This document shows, piece by piece, positions 1 through 8,571 of a stretch of 30,472 nucleotides of DNA. The position numbers were made by a program, and so were the translations under genes. Numbering within the stretch: position 1 is the first letter of the stretch; each line of letters opens with the position of its first letter. Under the pieces are notes generated by a model, which searched no databases, had not been told where the DNA came from, and saw only the letters and a program-made list of their open reading frames with translations. This DNA comes from Nostocales cyanobacterium PMM_0081 (lineage in GTDB: Bacteria > Cyanobacteriota > Cyanobacteriia > Cyanobacteriales > Nostocaceae), in contig CASBQC010000085.1 of the NCBI GenBank assembly GCA_949127805.1, positions 1 to 30,472 of the forward strand, read 5' to 3'.

Positions 1-17
1 CATAGTAATTAATTGTT

Positions 18-206
18 TTGGCTACGCCAAAAAACATTAATTACTATATCTCTCCACTCCCGCGCATTCATCTCACACCCCGGTATAGTGGGTGTGAGGC
101 TTCTGCTGATCTAGCTAAATTGACAACATCTATTATTGAAAATTGGCAAGGTATCAACGTTAAAGGTGGAAATAATACTATTTCTGGCAATACCTTCAAT
201 TTTTGA
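18..206 (+). pseudogene. Truncated remnant of the N-terminal module ORF preceding NB-ARC/TPR paralog 1
   Basis: Only the Gly/Asn-rich tail (WQGINVKGGNNTISGNTFNF*) resembles the tail of ORF 5992..6423 (VFQGNTFNGTNIF*). All three + frames are closed by stops within nt 1-40, so the long helical part seen in paralog 2 is absent. The ORF ends in a TGA that is in frame with 267..2555. Confidence 0.35.
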
Positions 207-214
207 CCACAGTC

Positions 215-232
215 GTCGGAACGGGAACCGAC
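215..232 (+). promoter_or_regulatory. Small hairpin GTCGG-N8-CCGAC starting 8 nt after the TGA at 204..206
   Basis: 5-bp stem with loop AACGGGAA. The paralogous site 6432..6449 has GTCCG-N8-CGGAC, so the only two substitutions in the element are compensatory. Confidence 0.45.
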
Positions 233-266
233 AAAGTTAAATCCCCTCACCAAAATACCAGATAAT

Positions 267-2555
267 TTGCCCTGGAGTGGGGCGACAAAGTTCGTCGGAC
301 GTGAAAAAGAACTCGCACATCTCCACCAACTATTGCAGGAAAACGACTCTGTAGCAATAGCTGCCGTTGCGGGTATGGGTGGTGTGGGTAAAACTGAATT
401 AGCGTTGCAATATGCACTTTTACAGCGCGAATTTTACTCTGGTGGGATTTGCTGGTGTGGTGTCAAAAGCGGTGATGTGGGTTTGCAAATTGTGCAATTT
501 GCTCGCATTCACTTAGATTTAAACCCCTTGACAGATTTAGATTTAATTGGGCAGGTAAAATACTGTTGGCAGCGCTGGGGTGAGGGTGAAGTGTTGTTAG
601 TGCTGGATGATGTCACTATATATAAGGAAATTCAGCCGTATTTACCGCCTTCATCCTCCCGATTTAAAGTGTTGATGACAACCAGAAAGCACTTCGGGAA
701 GATTCCTAAATTATCATTAGACGTACTGGAACCACAAGCCGCGCTAGATTTGTTGCGAAATCTCGTTAGGAAAGAACGAATTGACCTAACCCCCCTGCCC
801 CCTTCCCTGCAAGGGAAGGGGGAGTTTGATTCCCCTCTCCTTGCAGGAGAGGGGTTAGGGGAGAGGTCAATCGGAGAACTGTTAGCCTTGCAACTGTGTG
901 AAAGGTTGGGATATTTGCCTTTGGGGATAGAGTTAGTTGGACGGTATCTAGCTAGAAAAGAGGATTTGTCCCTCGCAGAAATGTTGCAGAGGTTGGAGAA
1001 AAAGGGACTCAACGAGCGTTCTTTGTCTCAGCGAGAAGACGACATGACAGCACAGCTGGGTGTGCAAGCAGCCTTTGAGTTAAGTTGGGATGAATTAAAC
1101 GACACAGATAAACAACTCGCGTGTTTGCTGAGTTTATTTGCTGCGGCACCGATACCTTGGGAGTTGGTAGAATCTTGCTTACCCGATGTAGATGCAGAAG
1201 AGTTAGAAGAAAGTCGGGACGATATGCTGCTGAATTTGCATTTGCTCCAGCGCAAGGAAAGGGGAATTTATCAACTGCATCCACTGCTGCGAGAATTCTT
1301 TCAAGCGAAGTTGCAAGGGTTAGATGTGGCAGAGGAATTCAAGCGATCGCTTTGTCGAATAATGGTAGCAGTTGCCAAAGATATTCCTGACTCGCTCACC
1401 CTTGAGCAAATCACCATTGTCTCTCCGGCAATACCTCATATAGCTGAAGTAGCAAATCATCTTATTGAATATGTCAGCGATGATGATTTATATTGGGCAT
1501 TGACTGGCAATGGTCAGTTTTACAATGCTCAAGGATTGTATGACAAAGCAGCACTTTGGTATGAGCAGTGTGTAAAAACCACTAAACAACGCTTGGGAGA
1601 AGAACATCCTAATGTCGCCACTAGCCTCAATAACCTCGCGGTACTCTACAGTTACCAAGGCAGATACAGCGAAGCCGAACCCTTACACATCCAAGCTTTG
1701 GCACTCAGGCGCAAACTGCTAGGTGAAGAATATCTTGAGGTTGCAGTTAGCCTCAACAACCTAGCGTTACTCTATTATTTTCAAAGCAAATACAGCGAAG
1801 CCGAACCCTTGTACATACAAGCTTTGGCACTCAAGCGCAAACTGCTAGGTGAAGAACATCTTGATGTCGCACTTAGCCTCAACAACCTAGCGGAACTCTA
1901 TTATTCTCAAGGCAGATACAGCGAAGCCGAACCCTTATACATCCAAGCTTTGGCACTCAGGCGCAAACTGCTAGGTGAAGAACATCCTCATGTCGCACTT
2001 AGCCTCAACAACCTAGGAAAATTTTACAGTTCCCAAAGCAGATACAGCGAAGCCGAACCCTTGTATATCCAAGCTTTGGCACTCAGCCGCAAACTGCTAG
2101 GTGAAGAACATCCTGATGTCGCACTTAGCCTCAACAACCTAGCGTTACTCTATTATTTTCAAAGCAGATACAGCGAAGCCGAACCCTTGTACATCCAAGC
2201 TTTGGCACTCAGGCGCAAACTGCTAGGTGAAGAACATCCTGATGTTGCAGTTAGCCTCAACAACCTAGCGGGATTCTATCGTTCTCAAGGCAGATATAGC
2301 GAAGCCGAACCCTTGTACATACAAGCTTTGGCACTTAACCGCAAACTGCTAGGTGAAGAACATCCCCATGTTGCAGTTAGCCTCAACAACCTAGCGAAGT
2401 TCTACTACTCCCAAACAAGTTACAGCAAAGCTGAACCGTTGTACCTGCAAGCGTTAGATATTTTTGAGCGTCGGTTAGGGGTGAATCATCCCCACACTGT
2501 CAAATGTGGTGAAAATCTGGCAATTCTTCGCGCTGACATGGCTTCACAGCAGTAA
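267..2555 (+). CDS. NB-ARC (APAF-1/R-protein type STAND) NTPase with C-terminal TPR array, paralog 1
   Basis: 762-aa ORF with Walker [12 protein letters not shown], Walker B LLVLDDV and a GLPL-like motif LGYLPLGIELVG. These are followed by seven 42-aa kinesin-light-chain-type TPR units (LGEEHPxVAxSLNNLAxxY). The only start available is TTG at 267, there is no in-frame ATG before the P-loop, and the frame is continuous with the upstream ORF apart from one TGA. Confidence 0.9.
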   Translation: MPWSGATKFVGREKELAHLHQLLQENDSVAIAAVAGMGGVGKTELALQYALLQREFYSGGICWCGVKSGDVGLQIVQFARIHLDLNPLTDLDLIGQVKYCWQRWGEGEVLLVLDDVTIYKEIQPYLPPSSSRFKVLMTTRKHFGKIPKLSLDVLEPQAALDLLRNLVRKERIDLTPLPPSLQGKGEFDSPLLAGEGLGERSIGELLALQLCERLGYLPLGIELVGRYLARKEDLSLAEMLQRLEKKGLNERSLSQREDDMTAQLGVQAAFELSWDELNDTDKQLACLLSLFAAAPIPWELVESCLPDVDAEELEESRDDMLLNLHLLQRKERGIYQLHPLLREFFQAKLQGLDVAEEFKRSLCRIMVAVAKDIPDSLTLEQITIVSPAIPHIAEVANHLIEYVSDDDLYWALTGNGQFYNAQGLYDKAALWYEQCVKTTKQRLGEEHPNVATSLNNLAVLYSYQGRYSEAEPLHIQALALRRKLLGEEYLEVAVSLNNLALLYYFQSKYSEAEPLYIQALALKRKLLGEEHLDVALSLNNLAELYYSQGRYSEAEPLYIQALALRRKLLGEEHPHVALSLNNLGKFYSSQSRYSEAEPLYIQALALSRKLLGEEHPDVALSLNNLALLYYFQSRYSEAEPLYIQALALRRKLLGEEHPDVAVSLNNLAGFYRSQGRYSEAEPLYIQALALNRKLLGEEHPHVAVSLNNLAKFYYSQTSYSKAEPLYLQALDIFERRLGVNHPHTVKCGENLAILRADMASQQ
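785..868 (+). mobile_element. Small palindromic dispersed repeat (MITE-like) inserted in frame inside NB-ARC paralog 1
   Basis: About 84 bp that are absent from paralog 2. It contains two perfect hairpins (CCCCCTTCCCT-GCA-AGGGAAGGGGG and CCCCTCTCCT-TGC-AGGAGAGGGG) plus an outer CTAACCCC/GGGGTTAG pair. It translates as LTPLPPSLQGKGEFDSPLLAGEGLGERS without a stop. Boundaries are approximate. Confidence 0.7.
1593..2474 (+). repeat. Seven tandem 126-bp (42-codon) near-identical TPR-coding units
   Basis: Units start at 1593, 1719, 1845, 1971, 2097, 2223 and 2349. Long stretches are identical at nucleotide level (for example cagatacagcgaagccgaaccctt...caagctttggcactc...cgcaaactgctaggtgaagaacatcct). 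Differences cluster in a few codons. Confidence 0.9.
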
Positions 2556-2604
2556 AATTTAAGTTCTCAGCCTCAACGATGAGGTTCTAAACTCGGCTGT
2601 TATC

Positions 2605-2793
2605 GTTTCAAGTGAGAACGTTCTTGTTTCAAGTGAGAACGTTCTTGTTTCAAGTGAGAACGTTTTCGTTTCAAGTGAGAACGTTTTCGTTTCAAGTGAG
2701 AACGTTCTTGTTTCAAGTGAGAACGTTCTCGTTTCAAGTGAGAACGTTCTTGTTTCAAGTGAGAACGTTCTTGTTTCAACCCAGAACTTTCAC
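2605..2793. repeat. Tandem array of a 21-bp unit GTTTCAAGTGAGAACGTTCTT (8 full copies plus 1 degenerate)
   Basis: Units start at 2605, 2626, 2647, 2668, 2689, 2710, 2731, 2752 and 2773 (degenerate). Each carries the 10-bp palindrome AGAACGTTCT, which is broken to AGAACGTTTT in units 3 and 4. There are no spacers. The 21-bp phase continues as a 19-bp direct repeat TTCACCCTTTTAGCCTCAA at 2789 and 2831. Confidence 0.9.
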
Positions 2794-2949
2794 CCTTTTA
2801 GCCTCAAGGTTTATGCTTTGAAGCTCAACGTTCACCCTTTTAGCCTCAACTTCCAAGTTCCAAGGTTGAATGATGGTGTTGTAACGGTACTAGCTTCTTT
2901 GCGAGACGCTACACATCTTACTTCTTTGAAGAAATACAACAAGCTGCAC

Positions 2950-3120
2950 TAAGAGTGTTCCAATAAATAAATGATCCAAAGCCTGTCATTGCGAATGGAG
3001 CGTTCGCGAAGCGTCTCGTAGAGAAGCGGAATGAAGCAATCGCTGAGTCTTTGCGATTGCTTCGCTTCACTTCGTTGCGCTCGCAATGACAATTGGGCAT
3101 TTTTTTACTTGGAGTACTCT
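2950..3120. mobile_element. MITE-like element with inner inverted repeat GTCATTGCGA...TCGCAATGAC (2985..3090)
   Basis: A perfect 10-bp inverted repeat bounds a 106-bp core, and an outer imperfect pair AGAGTGTTCCAA/TTGGAGTACTCT flanks it. Related fragments occur at 16406..16512 and inside 29555..29645. ORF 2918..3100(-) is a translation of this repeat. Confidence 0.6.
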
Positions 3121-3213
3121 AAAGCGATCGCTTTTATCTTCTCTATTGTAAACATCTCTTTAATTCAGTTAACATATCATTAAATCTCCACACTGAGGTG
3201 CTATAGAGATGGC
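3119..3213 (+). repeat. Copy A of a duplicated promoter/leader segment (uninterrupted)
   Basis: About 95 bp that are near-identical to 4311..4496 once the nested MITE there is removed. It ends exactly at the ATG plus 2 nt of ORF 3209..3448. Confidence 0.8.
3146..3175 (+). promoter_or_regulatory. Candidate sigma70-type promoter (TTGTAA-18 nt-TAACAT) for the 3209..3852 TA operon
   Basis: A -35-like TTGTAA sits at 3146..3151 and a TAnnnT-type -10 TAACAT at 3170..3175. A GAGG Shine-Dalgarno lies about 9 nt before the ATG at 3209. Assigned by pattern only. Confidence 0.3.
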
Positions 3214-3448
3214 AACCCTTAATCTCAATATTGAGCAAATCATCAGATTAGTGAAGCAACTAGCAATTCCAGAGCAGCATATGATATTGCAAGCCATTAA
3301 AGCAGAGGAAGATACTTGGTGGCAAAATAGACTCAATTACGGAGAGATACAGATGCGTTCTTTGAGTACAACACAAGGACTAAACTGGGATCTTATGACT
3401 GAACAGGAGCGAGAAGAATTCATAGACAATATCTTGCACGAGCAATGA
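3209..3448 (+). CDS. Putative antitoxin partner of the downstream PIN toxin
   Basis: 79-aa ORF whose stop overlaps the PIN gene start by 4 nt (ATGA). An SD-like GAGG lies upstream. No family was recognised. Confidence 0.55.
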   Translation: MATLNLNIEQIIRLVKQLAIPEQHMILQAIKAEEDTWWQNRLNYGEIQMRSLSTTQGLNWDLMTEQEREEFIDNILHEQ

Positions 3449-3852
3449 ACTCTTATATAGTTGTTTTCGATACAAACACGCTTTTTTCGGGTTTAGGTTG
3501 GCAAGGCAGTCCCTATCGTTGTTTAGAACTTGCTAGAAACAGGCAGATTGAATCTATAACTTGTCGAGAGATTTTATTAGAGTTACGCGAAAAGTTGCAG
3601 ACAAAGCAAAATCGTTCTCCGATAGACGCAGCTGTTGATATTGAGCAAATTCTTGCTTTTTCGCGCTTGGTAGAAATTCCCAATAACCTGAAAGTTGTTG
3701 TTGATGATCCTGATGATGATATGGTGATCGAGTGTGCAGTTGTAGGACAAGCAACACATATTATTACAGGTGATAAACACTTACTCTCATTAAATAAATA
3801 TCAGGATATTGATATTGTCAAAGCTGCGGATTTTCTCAATTTGCTTGCTTGA
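3445..3852 (+). CDS. PIN-family toxin (PIN_3 / TIGR00305-like)
   Basis: 135 aa with N-terminal VVFDTN, a central DPDDDMVIECA and C-terminal IITGDKHLL, the typical acidic residues of this PIN subfamily. It is a paralog of 29835..30260. Confidence 0.8.
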   Translation: MNSYIVVFDTNTLFSGLGWQGSPYRCLELARNRQIESITCREILLELREKLQTKQNRSPIDAAVDIEQILAFSRLVEIPNNLKVVVDDPDDDMVIECAVVGQATHIITGDKHLLSLNKYQDIDIVKAADFLNLLA

Positions 3853-3874
3853 TATGATGCTCGCTTTTTTGTGC

Positions 3875-4024
3875 TTATGGATAATCTACATTTAGATTGT
3901 AAACTGACAAGCGATCGCCATTCGCGCAGCGTGTCCCTTCGATAATTTCAGCAGCTTGCATCCACTGCTTTTCATCATCTTTTGTCAGGTAGCGTACTAA
4001 AATATTTGTATCAAGTCCAATCAC
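3875..4024 (-). pseudogene. Truncated VapC-like PIN toxin remnant (49 codons)
   Basis: A GTG start overlaps the antitoxin stop. The translation VIGLDTNILVRYLTKDDEKQWMQAAEIIEG matches a VapC N-terminus, then diverges and stops after 49 aa, whereas full-length VapC is about 130 aa. Confidence 0.5.
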
Positions 4025-4256
4025 TTGAGCCTTCTTGAATTGCCGCTTCCATTTCTTCTAAAGTTGCGCTTTTCATCCCCGGACGTTGTAATATCCCAGA
4101 TAAGCTTTGGATAGGGACATTCAGAGGAATCAATTTTACTGTTCCATTTTCATCAATGACAAAATCAACCCTACTACCTGTATTCAGATTAAGATAGTCC
4201 CTAATTTCTTTGGGAATAATTACTTGTCCTTCGGTGGTGATGGTTGCACTAGCCAT
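4011..4256 (-). CDS. AbrB/MazE/SpoVT-family antitoxin
   Basis: 81 aa. The N-terminus TITTEGQVIIPKEIRDYLNLNTGSRVDFVIDENGTVKLIP is a typical looped-hinge-helix (SpoVT-AbrB) fold sequence. Confidence 0.8.
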   Translation of the reverse strand: MASATITTEGQVIIPKEIRDYLNLNTGSRVDFVIDENGTVKLIPLNVPIQSLSGILQRPGMKSATLEEMEAAIQEGSSDWT

Positions 4257-4310
4257 TACTCACGTTCCTTACATAACTTCCTTACTAAAGGATAACTTAT
4301 ATTGACTAAT

Positions 4311-4496
4311 CTAAAAAGCGATCGCTTTTATCTTCTCTATTGTAGACATCGCTTTAATTCAGTAGACATCTCCAGAAAAGACGTAGAGACGTAGCAGTGC
4401 TACGTCTCTACAAGGGTTTTGGGCAACGCGTAATTAATTTTCGGGTCTAGTTAACATATCATTAAATCTCCACACTTGAGGTGCTATAGAGATGGC
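4311..4496 (+). repeat. Copy B of the duplicated promoter/leader segment, interrupted by a MITE
   Basis: Same sequence as 3119..3213, but with about 88 bp inserted between AATTCAG and TTAACAT, which is between the putative -35 and -10 elements. The retained ATG (4492) is followed by only four codons (MALT*). Confidence 0.8.
4363..4449. mobile_element. MITE copy M1 (TAGACATCTCC... family), nested in repeat copy B
   Basis: The left TIR TAGACATCTCCAGAAAAG is intact. The core hairpin is AGACGTAGCA-G-TGCTACGTCT. The right TIR is degraded (TTTTCGGGTCTA). The empty site is visible at 3166..3170. Confidence 0.8.
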
Positions 4497-4611
4497 TCTT
4501 ACGTGATTGCAAATGATGGAGAGCGATGTGTGCGATGATGCTCCGCCTACCCCCATCCAGTACAAAATTAGCTACCATCAATCATAATCTAATTATCTTC
4601 ACAAAACAGAA

Positions 4612-4830
4612 ATGTTAATTACATACACTGCCAAATATACAAAAACTAATAGCGGATATATGGGACAACTTATTGAATGGCAAGAAGTTATCACAGAGGG
4701 AGAAACCATAGAAGAATGCAGAGCTATGTTGCAAGACGCAACTAAAGAAATGATTCTTGCCTATCGTCAACAAAATAAAGAAATTCCCACAAGTGATTCT
4801 TTGCTCGAACAACTTCCTATAGAGGTGTGA
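4612..4830 (+). CDS. hicB: HicB-family antitoxin
   Basis: 72 aa. YTAKYTKTNSGYMGQLIEWQEVITEGETIEECRAMLQDATKEMI fits the HicB/UPF0150 N-terminal fold pattern, and a hicA-like sequence follows. Confidence 0.7.
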   Translation: MLITYTAKYTKTNSGYMGQLIEWQEVITEGETIEECRAMLQDATKEMILAYRQQNKEIPTSDSLLEQLPIEV

Positions 4831-5021
4831 GTGTGTCAGTCTAACGAAAATATTTAGTCAAATACTTAGAATAAAATGGCTTTTATTTATTAAGGGAAGG
4901 AGGAAATCATTCTATTTATACTAATGATCTAAAAACTATTCCTGTAAAACGTCATCGTACTATTGATCGGATTACTGCGAATGAGATTTGTAAACAAGCA
5001 GGTTTATTACCTAATTTTTAA
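4827..5021 (+). pseudogene. hicA: HicA-family toxin with two in-frame TAA stops
   Basis: Frame 3 reads VSVSV*RKYLVKYLE*NGFYLLREGGNHSIYTNDLKTIPVKRHRTIDRITANEICKQAGLLPNF*, with stops at 4842 and 4872. The GTG start overlaps the hicB stop (GTGTGA). The reading is otherwise a recognisable HicA (GGNH, PxxRH motifs). Confidence 0.7.
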
Positions 5022-5117
5022 TTGCTCTGTAATGTGGAATTTAGCGGACATAATGTTACACAGTCCATCTTCCACCTAAAACTTATTAAACCACGCTCGT
5101 GCGATCGCCTTTTTACC

Positions 5118-5477
5118 CTAAAATGGAATCCATTCGAGCCGATTTATCCATTCTTCTGCCTCAGTCGTCTCCCAAACCAGCAAAAGTTCTTGTGACAGTT
5201 CTCCTAATGGTATCCTGTCCCGCACCCAAAATAGTCCCCAAATCTGTCCGCCGGCTGCCCAATGTGCTTCCATATGAGCAGGCATACTAGCACGATTATC
5301 TGTCACCAAGAGCCTTTGCGATCGCTCCAGATATAACAACACATCCGGATCGAGTGTACCTAATTGCGGTGCATTACTTTCACCCACACGTAAGATATCT
5401 ATAGCAGGGTTGAGACGCAGCACAGCCACTTTCAAACGAGGTGATAAATTTTCGTCTAGCAAAAAACGCACTTTCAC
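5118..5477 (-). CDS. DUF5615-family (PIN-like) putative toxin
   Basis: 119 aa starting MKVRFLLDENLSPRL. It overlaps the upstream DUF433 gene by 4 nt. Confidence 0.7.
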   Translation of the reverse strand: MKVRFLLDENLSPRLKVAVLRLNPAIDILRVGESNAPQLGTLDPDVLLYLERSQRLLVTDNRASMPAHMEAHWAAGGQIWGLFWVRDRIPLGELSQELLLVWETTEAEEWINRLEWIPF

Positions 5478-5806
5478 AAAGCATTTACCTGCGGTTGAGT
5501 TCTTTGAGCCTTCACTGCTCTTAAACGTTCTACCACAGGTGAAGGATTAACAGCCCATTCTTGGTAACGCTGTTCGCGCCACTTTGTCAAACGTGACAAG
5601 TAAGCATCAATCTCGGCACGATTATGCAGATAATAAGTAATAGTAGCGTGAATCTGCTCCAAGTTCAAAGAAGGCAAACTAGCTGCAATTTCTTCCGGTG
5701 AATATCCTTCTAAGTAATAATCAAGTACATTATCAATGCCGATGCGGTGTCCTTTCAACCGAATATCATCAGACGATAAAAAGTCAAAATAATCTTCTAA
5801 TAGCAT
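5474..5806 (-). CDS. DUF433-family putative antitoxin
   Basis: 110 aa. The stretch GHRIGIDNVLDYYLEGYSPEEIAASLPSLNLEQIHATITYY matches the DUF433 HTH-like pattern and sits in the usual DUF433-DUF5615 pairing. Confidence 0.7.
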   Translation of the reverse strand: MLLEDYFDFLSSDDIRLKGHRIGIDNVLDYYLEGYSPEEIAASLPSLNLEQIHATITYYLHNRAEIDAYLSRLTKWREQRYQEWAVNPSPVVERLRAVKAQRTQPQVNAL

Positions 5807-5991
5807 CGGTCTACCCGTAAATAGAACTTAATGCCATCTTACGCCTTTTCATGCAGTCCTAAATCATCTTAGTTTGTAGCGCGGACTTACACTTTGCTAA
5901 TTTCAAGCCATATTTTTATGCTTCACCGGAGAAGACAAGCATACACTTGAAGATAGATATAACTGTAATCTCGTACTTAATAGCTTGCTGC

Positions 5992-6423
5992 ATGGAACCT
6001 GTAACACTCACAGCTGTAGCAACAGCGATCGCCACAATAGTTTTAACCAAAGCCCTAGAAAAAACAGGCGAAAAGCTTGGAGAAGCTGCATTAAATGAAA
6101 GTCATAAGTTAATTGAACAGCTACGCAATAAGAATAAGTTACCATTTCTCGCGAATGCAACACAAGAAAACCAAGAGCGATTAGATTATGGCAAAGCAGT
6201 GCTGGAGTTGAAAGCAGCAGCAGATGCAGATACCGAAATTGCCAAATCAGTGCGGTCTGTAGAAGCAGCAGCAAACGCCGATGCACAAGTTGCGCCAAAA
6301 GTCAAAGAGTTAGCAAATGATATCAACTCGCAACCACCAGGCATCATCAATCCGACAAAGTTAGCTGAATCGATTAAAAACGTCTTTCAGGGAAATACTT
6401 TTAACGGTACTAATATCTTTTGA
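5992..6423 (+). CDS. N-terminal helical module ORF preceding NB-ARC/TPR paralog 2
   Basis: ATG at 5992 (the track starts at TTG 5947). It begins with a hydrophobic helix MEPVTLTAVATAIATIVLTKAL, continues with charged or amphipathic helices, and ends in a Gly/Asn-rich tail. The terminal TGA at 6421 is in frame with 6484..8571. No family was recognised with certainty. Confidence 0.6.
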   Translation: MEPVTLTAVATAIATIVLTKALEKTGEKLGEAALNESHKLIEQLRNKNKLPFLANATQENQERLDYGKAVLELKAAADADTEIAKSVRSVEAAANADAQVAPKVKELANDINSQPPGIINPTKLAESIKNVFQGNTFNGTNIF

Positions 6424-6431
6424 CTACAGTC

Positions 6432-6449
6432 GTCCGAACGGGAACGGAC
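6432..6449 (+). promoter_or_regulatory. Small hairpin GTCCG-N8-CGGAC starting 8 nt after the TGA at 6421..6423
   Basis: Same position, loop (AACGGGAA) and spacing as 215..232, with a compensatory C:G versus G:C swap in the stem. Confidence 0.45.
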
Positions 6450-6483
6450 AAAGTTAAATCCCCCCATTATAATACCAGATAAT

Positions 6484-8571
6484 TTGCCCTGGAGTGGAGT
6501 GGCGGAGTTTGTCGGGCGTGAAAAAGAACTCGCACATCTCCACCAACTATTGCAGGACAATCACCAAGTTGCAATAGCGGCGATCGCTGGTATGGGTGGT
6601 GTGGGTAAAACTGAACTTGCGCTGCAATATGCACTTAAGCAGCGCGAATTTTACTCTGGTGGAATTTGCTGGTGTGGTGTCAAAAGCGGTGATGTGGGTT
6701 TGCAAATTGTGCAATTTGCTCGCATTCACCTAGAATTAAACCCCTTGACAGATTTGGATTTAGTCGGGCAGGTAGCATACTGTTGGCAGCGCTGGGGTGA
6801 GGGTGAAGTGTTGTTAGTGCTGGATGATGTCACTATCTATAAGGAAATTCAGCCGTACTTACCGCCTTCATCCACCCGATTTAAGGTGCTGATGACAACC
6901 AGAAAGCACTTCGGGCAGATTTCTAAATTATCATTAGATGTCCTACAACCACAAGCCGCGCTGGATTTGTTGCGAAATCTCGTTGGGGAAGAACGGGTTA
7001 ATGTAGAGACACAGGTTATCGCGTCTCTACCTGAAAGGTTGGGATATTTACCTTTAGGGTTAGAATTAGTAGGGCGGTATCTCGCAAGAAAAGAGGATTT
7101 ATCCCTCACAGAAATGTTGCAGAGGTTGGAGAAAAAGAAACTAAAAGAGCGTTCTTTGTCTCAGCCAGAAGATAACATGACAGCACAGCGGGGTGTGCAA
7201 GCAGCATTCGAGTTAAGTTGGGATGAATTAAACGACACAGATAAACAACTCGCGTGTTTGCTGAGTTTATTTGCTGCGGCACCCATACCTTGGGAGTTGG
7301 TAAAATCTTGCTTAAGTAATGTGGATGCAGAAGAGTTAGAAGAAAGTCGGGATGATAAGCTGCTGAATTTGCATTTGCTACAGCGTAAGCAAAAGGGAAT
7401 TTATCAACTGCATCGACTGCTGCGAGAATTTTTTCAAGGGAAGCTAGAAGCACCACCGTTTCAGGAGAGTTGCGGGAATTTTAAACAAGCTTTTGTCAAA
7501 GTAACGATCGCGATCGCCAAGTATATTCCTCAAACCCCCACCCTTAAATTAATCACCGCTGTCTCCCCTGCTATGCCTCATTTAGCAGAAGTAGCGAAGA
7601 ATTTTATTCAACACATTAGCGATGAAGATTTAATCTGGGCTTTCGTCGCGCAGGGTCGATTTTACAGAGGTCAGGGGTTGTATACTCAGGCAGAACCTTG
7701 GTTTAAGCAGTGTCTAGAAGTTACTAAAAAGCGCTTGGGAGAAAAACATCCCGCTGTTGCAACTAGCCTCAACAACCTAGCAGGACTTTACTCCGACCAA
7801 GGACGTTACGCAGACGCCGAACCTTTGTACCAACAAGCTTTGCAACTAATGCGACATCTTTTGGGAGAAGAACATCCCTATCTTGCACCTAGTCTTAACA
7901 ACCTAGCGTTACTCTACTCTTCCCAAGGACGTTACGCAGATGCCGAACCCCTGTACCAACAAGCTTTAAAAATGAGACGACATCTGTTGGGAGAAGAACA
8001 TCCCGCTGTTGCAGTTAGCCTCAACAACCTAGCGTTACTCCACTATTATCAAGGACGCTATAGTGAAGCCGAACCTCTAGCACTCCGAGCGATAGAACTA
8101 GATAGGCAGTTTTTAGGAGAAAAGTATCCTGATTTAGCTACAGATATTCACAATTTGGCTTTGATATACCGCGCTCAAGGACGCTATAGCGAAGCAGAAC
8201 CATTATTTCTGCAAGCCTTGAAACTCAAACAGCTTCTATTGCCAGAAGACCATCCCCTTTTGGCAGATACTATCTACGCCCTAGGTTATATGTACAGAAT
8301 CCAGGGTTGCTACACTAAAGCAGAAACATTTTCCATAAAAGCATTAGAACTCGATAAACGCTTGCTGGGAGACAACCATCCCTATGTCGCGCAAAGCTTA
8401 AACAATCTGGCAGAACTCTACAAATCCCAAGGAAGTTACAGCCAAGCCGAACCTTTATTGCAACAAGCTTTAGATATTTTTGAGCGACGGTTAGCTGTGA
8501 ATCATCCCCACACTATCACTGTTCGTGAAAATCTGGCAATTCTTCGCGCTGAAATAACTTCACAGCAGTAA
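6484..8571 (+). CDS. NB-ARC (STAND) NTPase with C-terminal TPR array, paralog 2
   Basis: 695 aa with the same Walker A, Walker B and GLPL motifs as paralog 1. The first roughly 340 aa and the last roughly 35 aa are near-identical to paralog 1, while the central TPR units have diverged. The start is TTG only. Confidence 0.9.
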   Translation: MPWSGVAEFVGREKELAHLHQLLQDNHQVAIAAIAGMGGVGKTELALQYALKQREFYSGGICWCGVKSGDVGLQIVQFARIHLELNPLTDLDLVGQVAYCWQRWGEGEVLLVLDDVTIYKEIQPYLPPSSTRFKVLMTTRKHFGQISKLSLDVLQPQAALDLLRNLVGEERVNVETQVIASLPERLGYLPLGLELVGRYLARKEDLSLTEMLQRLEKKKLKERSLSQPEDNMTAQRGVQAAFELSWDELNDTDKQLACLLSLFAAAPIPWELVKSCLSNVDAEELEESRDDKLLNLHLLQRKQKGIYQLHRLLREFFQGKLEAPPFQESCGNFKQAFVKVTIAIAKYIPQTPTLKLITAVSPAMPHLAEVAKNFIQHISDEDLIWAFVAQGRFYRGQGLYTQAEPWFKQCLEVTKKRLGEKHPAVATSLNNLAGLYSDQGRYADAEPLYQQALQLMRHLLGEEHPYLAPSLNNLALLYSSQGRYADAEPLYQQALKMRRHLLGEEHPAVAVSLNNLALLHYYQGRYSEAEPLALRAIELDRQFLGEKYPDLATDIHNLALIYRAQGRYSEAEPLFLQALKLKQLLLPEDHPLLADTIYALGYMYRIQGCYTKAETFSIKALELDKRLLGDNHPYVAQSLNNLAELYKSQGSYSQAEPLLQQALDIFERRLAVNHPHTITVRENLAILRAEITSQQ
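7003..7030 (+). repeat. In-frame GTAGAGAC...GTCTCTAC hairpin repeat inside NB-ARC paralog 2
   Basis: It translates as VETQVIASL. It lies at the same place relative to the GLPL motif where paralog 1 carries the 84-bp element. It has the same stem family as the hairpins at 25691, 25729 and 27313. Confidence 0.55.

Follow-up and report, generated by a model that had tools for sequence, protein, structure and literature searches.

The DNA analysed is the entire 30.5-kb contig CASBQC010000085.1 of Nostocales cyanobacterium PMM_0081 (30,472 nucleotides, nt), referred to below as the window. The locus described here occupies its first 8.6 kb and contains two NLR-like genes in tandem, each of which lies behind, and in the same reading frame as, a Bell-type module or the remnant of one. 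In both copies, a single UGA codon followed by C and by an RNA hairpin separates the module from the NLR gene. This conserved in-frame UGA-C, together with its RNA element, is the most informative feature of the locus. An earlier sequence-only reading treated the two as a module open reading frame (ORF) upstream and a possible fusion, and the in-frame UGA-C and the RNA element had gone unrecognised.

NLR paralog 1 (207..2555, plus strand) and NLR paralog 2 (6424..8571, plus strand) each comprise a conserved linker of 20 codons, an NB-ARC domain, a helical domain and TPR repeats, which match TPR_12 and TPR_10 in both paralogs. The frame of paralog 1 is open from 207, with an ORF-finder start at TTG 267 (ORF 267..2555), and it matched NB-ARC (9e-13) and TPR_12 (7e-119) in Pfam. 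The frame of paralog 2 is open from 6424, with an ORF-finder ORF at 6484..8571 on the same strand, and matched NB-ARC (8.8e-16) and TPR_12 (1e-90). The Walker A motif GMGGVGKT is present, and the domain composition is that of NB-ARC/TPR STAND NTPases (NLR-like), in agreement with the sequence-only reading. The mosaic similarity that it had described was also borne out. Between paralogs 1 and 2, the nucleotide-binding oligomerisation domain (NOD) half is 90-93% identical at the nucleotide level, with a proportion of synonymous differences (pS) of 0.15-0.29, the helical/TPR half is 56-72% identical (pS 0.5-0.9), and the final 60 codons are 78% identical. The two NTPase halves are indeed similar, but 'near-identical' was too strong a term for about 91% identity over 578 nt. 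As had been noted, the TPR arrays differ in size: Tandem Repeats Finder gave 6.8 copies of a 126-nt unit (86% matches) in the expanded array of paralog 1 (1599..2452, plus strand) and 2.6 copies at 7735-8057 in paralog 2.

Upstream of paralog 2 lies the Bell-type ORF (5992..6420, plus strand), which has 143 codons from the ATG at 5992, its stop ending at 6423. The product begins MEPVTLTAV (MEPVTLTAVATAIATIVLTK), and the alignment of homologues shows no variation at M1 and almost none at T5, L6, T7 and A8. The AlphaFold2 (AF2) model is all-helical, with predicted helices at residues 6-25, 31-46, 66-79, 81-96, 101-112 and 121-133 (predicted local distance difference test 69, predicted template modelling score 0.65), which is consistent with the hydrophobic N-terminal helix and helical module proposed earlier. 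The C-terminal motif 'KLAESIKNVFQGNTFNGTNIF' (6358-6420) is a homologue of the motif that canonical relatives carry on both partners and is probably of the amyloid-signalling type. A total of 231 module homologues were found; the 120 listed are all 89-199 aa long, the named organisms are almost all Nostocales, and 147 of the best 150 representatives are no longer than 217 aa.

Bell domains have been described as proteins of approximately 120-140 aa, rarely as N-terminal domains of NLRs, and are most frequent in Nostocaceae; they have a hydrophobic first helix, an acidic residue at position 2 or 3 and a modelled bundle of about five helices around helix 1, and are encoded beside NLR-like genes (bioRxiv 10.1101/2020.01.06.895854). 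A distant member of the family, Bab of E. coli, executes cell death in abortive infection, and its N-terminal 'MEPIS' motif is common to Bell and Hell domains and to Avast2 (bioRxiv 10.1101/2024.11.07.622273). With a length of 143 aa, a hydrophobic helix 1, E at position 2 and an adjoining collinear NB-ARC/NACHT gene, the module fits the published Bell domain, a putative HeLo/CC-like membrane-targeting domain, and its membership in the family rests on these features. Because the published features match the module, the HeLo/CC analogy drawn in the sequence-only reading is sound, and the guess of a membrane-inserting effector agrees with the published family and its NLR-like STAND partners. The module was, by contrast, wrongly called uncharacterised, since the Bell family had already been described and distant Bab acts in abortive infection. 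Profile and structure searches, which the same reading had suggested, matched NB-ARC and TPR_12 in the NLR genes but left the module itself unmatched: Pfam, NCBIfam and PADLOC, none of which contains a Bell model, returned nothing for it, Foldseek with the AF2 model found nothing in the PDB below E = 4, and the module profile found nothing meaningful among PDB sequences, Bab (PDB 9H9V) being unmatched if it is in that copy.

The junction was compared across 80 loci encoding relatives of the module, with one genome per species. Junction counts (n = 80) include both window copies, and module loci ending in TGA number 78; one scan of Nostocales genomes confirmed 380 module matches. In the window, the in-frame UGA lies at 204..206 in copy 1 (plus strand, C at 207), where it is the sole stop in the frame read from 3 to 2555, and at 6421..6423 in copy 2 (plus strand, C at 6424). 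Module and NLR thus share a frame in both copies, with one TGA and no other stop between them, and the read-through peptides would be '...GNTFNF*PQSSEREPTKLNPLTKIPDNLPWSG...' for paralog 1 and '...GTNIF*LQSSERERTKLNPPIIIPDNLPWSG...' for paralog 2. The module stop was TGA in 78/80 related loci, from many Nostocales genera, and the frame behind it was open for at least 100 codons in 74 of these 78, typically for 600-1151. The +4 base was C in 77/80 junctions, with varying flanking codons; CUA or CUG followed the stop in 72/80, and the preceding codon varied. UGA-C is the weakest documented bacterial termination context (PMC5289835). The junction stop was never UAA or UAG, and no sense codon, Cys included, replaced UGA among the 120 homologues listed or the 150 best representatives. 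Three long representatives considered as sense-codon fusions (P0184, P0186 and P0247) proved to be distant Bell fusions without this junction. A prfB-type +1 frameshift at UUU UGA C was also rejected, since the NLR is in the zero frame and the +1 frame of copy 2 meets TAA after 11 codons. Locus L022 (4433-4438) has the only NLR-linked junction with UGA-U; its next codon is TTG, a possible start directly after the stop.

The partners encoded behind the junction were NB-ARC/TPR_12, NB-ARC/TPR_1 (classical TPR), NB-ARC/DUF7779/phycobilisome and NACHT/HEAT/NCC-H proteins. Since one junction serves such varied partners, it appears that the module travels with its stop and the next ~40 nt as a cassette. 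One readthrough-type unit, at 4436-6421 of L049 (Aetokthonos hydrillicola), encodes an NB-ARC protein that ends in a PF00502 phycobilisome domain (1.9e-36) and not in TPRs, so that a domain of the light-harvesting antenna appears to serve as the C-terminal module of an NLR-like protein.

The RNA element starts at the base after UGA. In copy 1 (207..245, plus strand), an 8-nt spacer (207-214) is followed by stem arms GUCGG (215-219) and CCGAC (228-232) around the loop (220-227), by AAAGUUAAA (233-241) and by UCCC (242-245), which is complementary to the loop GGGA. Copy 2 (6424..6462, plus strand) has its spacer at 6424-6431, arms GUCCG (6432-6436) and CGGAC (6445-6449), loop AACGGGAA (6437-6444), the same AAAGUUAAA at 6450-6458 and UCCC at 6459-6462. 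At the junctions, the hairpin has 5-7 bp and lies 8 nt downstream of UGA. Covariance model R1 matched the window only at 198-254 (67.6 bits) and 6415-6471 (71.1 bits), and across 667 kb it matched at these junctions only. The two window stems differ from each other by a compensatory swap (GUCCG/CGGAC versus GUCGG/CCGAC). Over 72 distinct sequences, 88% of stem cells were paired, as compared to 9-36% with the partners slid, compensatory double changes numbered 8, 17 and 27 at three stem pairs, and RNAalifold independently predicted the same stem. An outer helix, UGACU/AGUYA, was 98% paired but invariant. Rfam contained no known family matching the window at the gathering threshold or the junction at E <= 10. 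A pseudoknot extension of the hairpin is suggested by the purine-rich loop, which is complementary to a pyrimidine run 8-9 nt past the stem and in places changes together with it (GGGA/UCCC, GAGA/UCUC, GGGAG/CUCCC).

We next consider the coding properties of the linker between UGA and the NLR domains. For the NB-ARC class, the hairpin stretch had a ratio of non-synonymous to synonymous differences (pN/pS) of 1.2 and a pS of 0.15; for the NACHT class, the values were 3.3 and 0.07. Alongside the hairpin, pS was 0.31-0.47. Synonymous change is therefore low where non-synonymous change is free, which is a signature of constraint on the RNA. Farther on, pN/pS fell to 0.28 at codons 17-25 after UGA in the NB-ARC class, where an invariant Leu is encoded by TTA, TTG, CTT, CTC or CTG, and to 0.43 at codons 13-23 in the NACHT class. 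The linker to the FVGR anchor measures 24-28 codons depending on the clade, and the differences are always multiples of three. The first in-frame ATG, GTG or TTG lies at codon 20-26 in most NB-ARC loci, with two exceptions at 38-41; in the remaining loci, NACHT ones included, it falls between codons 23 and 75. With positions so scattered, no start codon is conserved. Because the coding signature extends upstream of such starts, ribosomes appear to cross the linker in the frame of the upstream ORF.

Three loci (L057, L059 and L063) carry the same Bell family arranged as canonical two-gene pairs, and they differ from the window at the junction. The covariance model found no hairpin in any of them. 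In L059 and L063, Bell ends in UGA-U and the NACHT gene is in another frame, and in L057 a premature in-frame TAA interrupts the Bell frame. In all three, the NACHT gene starts from an ATG of its own and encodes, at its N-terminus, a further copy of the motif found at the Bell C-terminus. For L063, alignment of 'KLAEKIGQVVVGGTGSIQNQS' (end of Bell) with 'KFAEKIGVVAHNSTVNIHNQN' (start of the NLR) scored 47, which none of 2000 shuffles reached; in L059, the corresponding score was 36, reached by 1/2000 shuffles. The Bell C-terminus of the window scored 20 against the 45 aa past UGA, which 688/2000 shuffles matched, and no motif was found there. Thus, the window would show the hallmark of a BASS pair (bacterial amyloid signalling sequence; the motif on Bell and on a separate NLR) only through readthrough of the stop, whereas L063 and L059 have it. 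Furthermore, the hypothetical readthrough product of L058 is collinear with the stand-alone NLR of L063, its Bell motif taking the position of the NLR motif, and both proteins continue '...TPINWHEICRQLLEPRRRL...' past the motif.

What was computed directly is how the locus is built and conserved, the covariation in the RNA, the coding signature and the difference from the two-gene relatives. From these we infer the occurrence of readthrough, its efficiency, the decoding tRNA and the whole of the downstream cell-death mechanism. The junction combines the expected marks of a recoding site: a putatively leaky stop in a weak context, a coding signature behind it and a structured RNA downstream, which plausibly stimulates readthrough. 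Our preferred explanation, with a probability of roughly 0.6, is programmed UGA readthrough that yields an abundant free Bell effector and a rare fusion of Bell, motif and NLR.

According to this model, Bell, its C-terminal signalling motif, UGA-C, the hairpin (possibly a pseudoknot) and the NLR would form a single translational unit. Most ribosomes would stop at UGA and release a free Bell protein of ~15 kDa, a latent membrane-targeting cell-death effector. A minority would pass UGA-C, probably by near-cognate decoding aided by the structure 8 nt downstream, and continue in frame into NB-ARC/TPR, giving the rare Bell-motif-NLR fusion. Triggering of the TPR sensor would cause the NLR to oligomerise and its N-terminal motif and Bell domains to cluster, and the cluster would activate or template the pool of free Bell, with damage to the membrane and death of the cell as the outcome (abortive infection or another form of regulated death). 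Readthrough would allow one motif-coding sequence to serve both partners and would fix a high effector-to-sensor ratio. It is doubtful that readthrough, instead of being a fixed leak, is itself the regulated step, in which the hairpin or pseudoknot makes the ratio of fusion to free Bell track the state of termination (for example, availability of release factor 2 (RF2), ribosome pausing or phage takeover of translation); such regulation would possibly involve a factor binding the invariant AAAGUYAA, and recoding would then contribute to setting or tripping the threshold for cell death in multicellular bacteria of this kind.

Several observations weigh against programmed readthrough. We know of no established precedent for structure-stimulated stop-codon readthrough in bacterial cellular genes, and the evidence assembled here is comparative throughout. 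The stability of the hairpin at six junctions was no better than that of shuffles (z between -0.4 and -1.2, with +0.07 at window copy 1); with such unremarkable thermodynamics, the case for the hairpin rests on covariation. Watson-Crick runs of at least 4 between loop and downstream sequence were found in 76% of own, 45% of cross and 17% of shuffled combinations, uncorrected for kinship, which makes an H-type pseudoknot possible but not established. The in-frame ORFs of L046, L070, L045, L018, L006 and L072 are short (30-146 codons), indicating that some copies are decaying. In addition, raw locus counts overstate the independent support because the loci are related. A further point, the candidate internal starts described below, bears on a rival explanation.

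An ordinary two-gene operon, in which UGA terminates and the NLR is made from an internal GTG/TTG or from an internal-promoter transcript, is unlikely, although it survives better than any other alternative. The hairpin would then act in translational coupling, mRNA processing or stability, and the conservation of frame and linker would be left over from an ancestral fusion. Most NB-ARC-class loci have a GTG or TTG 20-26 codons past UGA. The candidate internal starts of paralog 2 are TTG 6484 and GTG 6499, the latter within GGAG-N4-GTG (6491-6501), and its linker also contains a promoter-like CGGACA-17-TATAAT (6445-6473), so that independent initiation is possible there. The TATAAT of this site is confined to the closest relatives and could give paralog 2 an NLR transcript of its own. 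Gene callers treat the unit as two genes (starts at 5029 or 5041 for L081-L083), and published Bell/NLR pairs are separate, closely spaced genes (bioRxiv 10.1101/2020.01.06.895854). The purine-rich loop resembles a Shine-Dalgarno sequence, but there is no start codon at a usable distance from it, and reinitiation from the loop was rejected as a candidate for the same reason. Nor does a conserved start exist for an operon to use: in several NACHT-class and other loci, the first start lies 50-75 codons on, within conserved protein sequence, and paralog 1 has no GTG, its TTG lacking a Shine-Dalgarno sequence. Purifying selection with synonymous turnover reaches the codons upstream of all candidate starts, the linker indels keep to multiples of three, and UGA-C is strict (77/80, never UAA or UAG). 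True two-gene relatives differ in every such respect.

Far less probable is an inherited nonsense mutation, by which duplication and gene conversion would have spread Bell-NLR fusion pseudogenes that are now in decay, with a functionless UGA. Damaged copies do occur, including the truncated Bell of paralog 1, the frameshifted NLR genes of L018 and the short ORFs of L046, L070, L006 and L045, and the loci are paralogous and recombining. This explanation would nevertheless have to accommodate a stop that is kept across modules 52-60% identical and unrelated NLR partners, frames of 600-1151 codons that stay open behind it, purifying selection on both flanks, a covarying RNA structure beside it, and its failure ever to drift to UAA/UAG or to revert to sense. 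Least probable of all is that UGA encodes selenocysteine or another non-standard residue and the hairpin is a bacterial SECIS-like (selenocysteine insertion sequence) element. A conserved in-frame UGA followed by a stem-loop is the general layout of bacterial selenocysteine insertion (PMC9312934), but surveys have not detected the selenocysteine-decoding trait in Cyanobacteria (PMC1794560, PMC9312934), no Cys homologue occurs at the site (120 listed, 150 best) whereas almost all selenoproteins have one (PMC9312934), the site is an inter-domain linker and no redox centre, the loop is not conserved as a SelB-binding loop would be, and the window has no tRNA gene (tRNA scan).

If programmed readthrough is correct, it would be a conserved, RNA-structure-associated event in chromosomal bacterial genes, where, to our knowledge, programmed readthrough outside selenocysteine and phages is nearly unheard of. 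An NLR-type system would make sensor and executioner from one frame, with a built-in ratio and a single shared motif, and would be a bacterial analogue of viral Gag/Gag-Pol, at work in NLR signalling of the amyloid type. It would also mean that the annotated start codons of the Nostocales NLR genes behind these junctions are wrong. Direct tests are feasible, since the same cassette is present in locus L082, on what we take to be an Anabaena/Nostoc PCC 7120-type chromosome. That chromosome has one copy, whose surroundings differ but whose UGA-C, hairpin and frame are the same.

Tolypothrix (L018) and [Scytonema hofmanni] UTEX 2349 (L041 and L003, separated by 5 kb) show the tandem arrangement of the window again, but with other islet contents. 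The locus is not part of an invariant core synteny: copy number, islet content and neighbourhood vary among genomes. In L018 (Tolypothrix sp. VBCCA 56010), both NLR genes are split by frameshifts (425-2597 and 4463-5102), through decay or sequencing errors. Outside Nostocales, the Bell family was found in Microcoleus (L084, 3501-4889) and in a related metagenome contig (L085, 3501-4079), where it ends in TGA-C. The in-frame continuation of L084 leads into a transmembrane segment, a Pro-rich linker and PPC-like domains, not an NLR, and the covariance model finds no hairpin in L084 or L085; the Microcoleus cases are too little for interpretation.

Upstream of paralog 1, a remnant of a divergent Bell-type ORF (115..203, plus strand) retains the last ~30 codons, with the motif region '...LAKLTTSIIENWQGINVKGGNNTISGNTFNF'. 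Positions 115-298 are 94% identical to L018 273-456, and in L018 a divergent Bell-like ORF (26..364, 112+ aa) reaches the point equivalent to the paralog 1 junction. Positions 1-114 of the window gave no match and are unrelated to the L018 Bell ORF; they contain an 18-nt inverted repeat (2-19/30-47) and could be the end of a mobile element at which the assembly broke off. The Bell truncation may be an insertion, a rearrangement or a contig-end/assembly effect. That paralog 1 keeps just ~30 module codons is true of the contig as assembled, but it cannot be taken for an intrinsic trait, as the window starts at the contig end. The longer ORF of L018 and the unrelated 1-114 mean that the truncation is no evidence for a designed decoy, and the idea of an 'effector-less sensor or decoy' is not supported.

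The NB-ARC region of paralog 1 also contains a palindromic 120-nt in-frame insert (779..898, plus strand; inverted-repeat arms 792-821/832-861), translated as 'DLTPLPPSLQGKGEFDSPLLAGEGLGERSIGELLALQL', which blastn and protein alignment showed to be missing from paralog 2. It is present in the L018 ortholog as well, and the second L018 copy is disrupted by a different insert. The insert looks like a small dispersed or MITE-like (miniature inverted-repeat transposable element) repeat that is tolerated inside coding sequence. Of the MITEs claimed earlier, this was the one clear case; otherwise, small inverted repeats only were found.

The islet between the paralogs starts with a non-coding 21-nt tandem array (2605..2850), confirming an earlier observation, with 8.3 copies at 96% (2605-2779) and a degenerate tail. 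It lies directly after paralog 1, and the same array sequence adjoins the Hassallia loci L002 and L004. The islet is rich in toxin-antitoxin (TA) genes, as had been reported, but just two of the four supposed modules are complete pairs. A complete TA-type pair at 3209..3852 (plus strand) consists of a PIN_3 toxin gene (3445..3852, Pfam 2.8e-19) and, upstream and overlapping with it, an ORF of 79 aa. An AbrB/MazE-type antitoxin gene (4011..4256, minus strand; MazE_antitoxin, 1.5e-10) is accompanied by a truncated 49-aa VapC-like ORF (3875..4024, minus strand; 'MIGLDTNILVRYL...'), and this MazE/VapC-like segment was found again near L022 and L056. An orphan HicB-like (UPF0150) antitoxin-type gene (4612..4830, plus strand; Pfam UPF0150, 5e-07) belongs to a segment seen again downstream of the Bell-NLR loci L016, L026, L042, L045 and L053. 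The DUF433 (5474..5806) and DUF5615 (5118..5477) pair (5118..5806, minus strand), identified by Pfam, is kept in L001, L018 and L041. Window segments 3934-4272, 4612-5023 and 5054-5842 correspond to TA cassettes at 87-95% nucleotide identity beside Bell-NLR loci of unrelated Nostocales genomes, which suggests that these cassettes are mobile modules landing repeatedly beside Bell-NLR genes.

The remainder of the window consists of housekeeping genes, and PADLOC models matched only through a generic TPR model (1.5e-15) and a marginal PDC-S27 (0.003). These results do not support the 'defence island' of the sequence-only reading, and the locus does not appear to belong to the antiphage STAND systems modelled in PADLOC, Avs and bNACHT among them.

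The components of the locus are of known kinds (Bell domain, NLR and TA genes), and the recoded junction appears not to have been described before. A literature search on readthrough in cyanobacteria, Nostoc, Bell, NLR and antiphage systems, which did not cover all journals, found no description of it, and neither stop codons nor readthrough come up in the main papers on Bell/BASS, on multicellular-prokaryote conflict systems and on defence STANDs. Among the closest known systems is the Bell/BASS pair of Dyrka et al. (bioRxiv 10.1101/2020.01.06.895854), with which the locus shares a ~140-aa protein with a hydrophobic helix 1 and an acidic position 2, a predicted helical bundle, a C-terminal G/N/Q-rich motif, a position directly upstream of a collinear NB-ARC/TPR or NACHT gene and enrichment in Nostocaceae. 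Unlike in such pairs, the NLR part in the window has neither a copy of the motif nor a conserved start and is joined in frame through UGA-C and a hairpin. A two-protein motif-pair screen would miss this class. The locus resembles E. coli Bab/Agp (Ibarlosa et al., bioRxiv 10.1101/2024.11.07.622273) in the MEP[IV][ST]-type start, located on a helix 1 that is predicted to line a pore and to be cupped by further helices, and in a proposed membrane-targeting executioner that is activated by its partner; however, at ~80 aa Bab ('Babybell') is the shorter protein, Agp does not belong to the NLRs, and the genes are separate. The prfB (RF2) site CUU UGA C likewise uses the poor bacterial termination signal UGA-C (PMC5289835), but in a +1 frameshift with an upstream Shine-Dalgarno sequence, whereas the downstream ORF in the window is in the zero frame.

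The same effector-NOD-sensor logic, with an NB-ARC/NACHT core and repeat sensors, is found in antiphage STAND NTPases (Avs, bNACHT). Their effector is joined by plain fusion, as opposed to the putative recoded junction of the present loci. In its logic, the proposed mechanism also resembles fungal HET-S/NWD2, where NLR oligomerisation templates a short motif and switches on a helical membrane-targeting domain. That system is eukaryotic, with two separate genes and no recoding, and homology would be very remote at best.

Viral readthrough is known from murine leukaemia virus (MuLV) gag-pol, with UAG, an 8-nt spacer and a pseudoknot, from alphaviruses and plant viruses, with UGA-C(UA), and from the Q-beta coat/A1 protein, with UGA. 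For Q-beta, structure is not known to be needed, and the other viruses use eukaryotic ribosomes. The junction of the window resembles these cases in its weak-context stop, the preference for UGA CUA/CUG, a structure ~8 nt on, and the proposed pairing of a short abundant product with a rare extended one. It differs from them in that the genes are chromosomal and bacterial, and that the extension is a whole STAND NTPase of 700-1100 aa.

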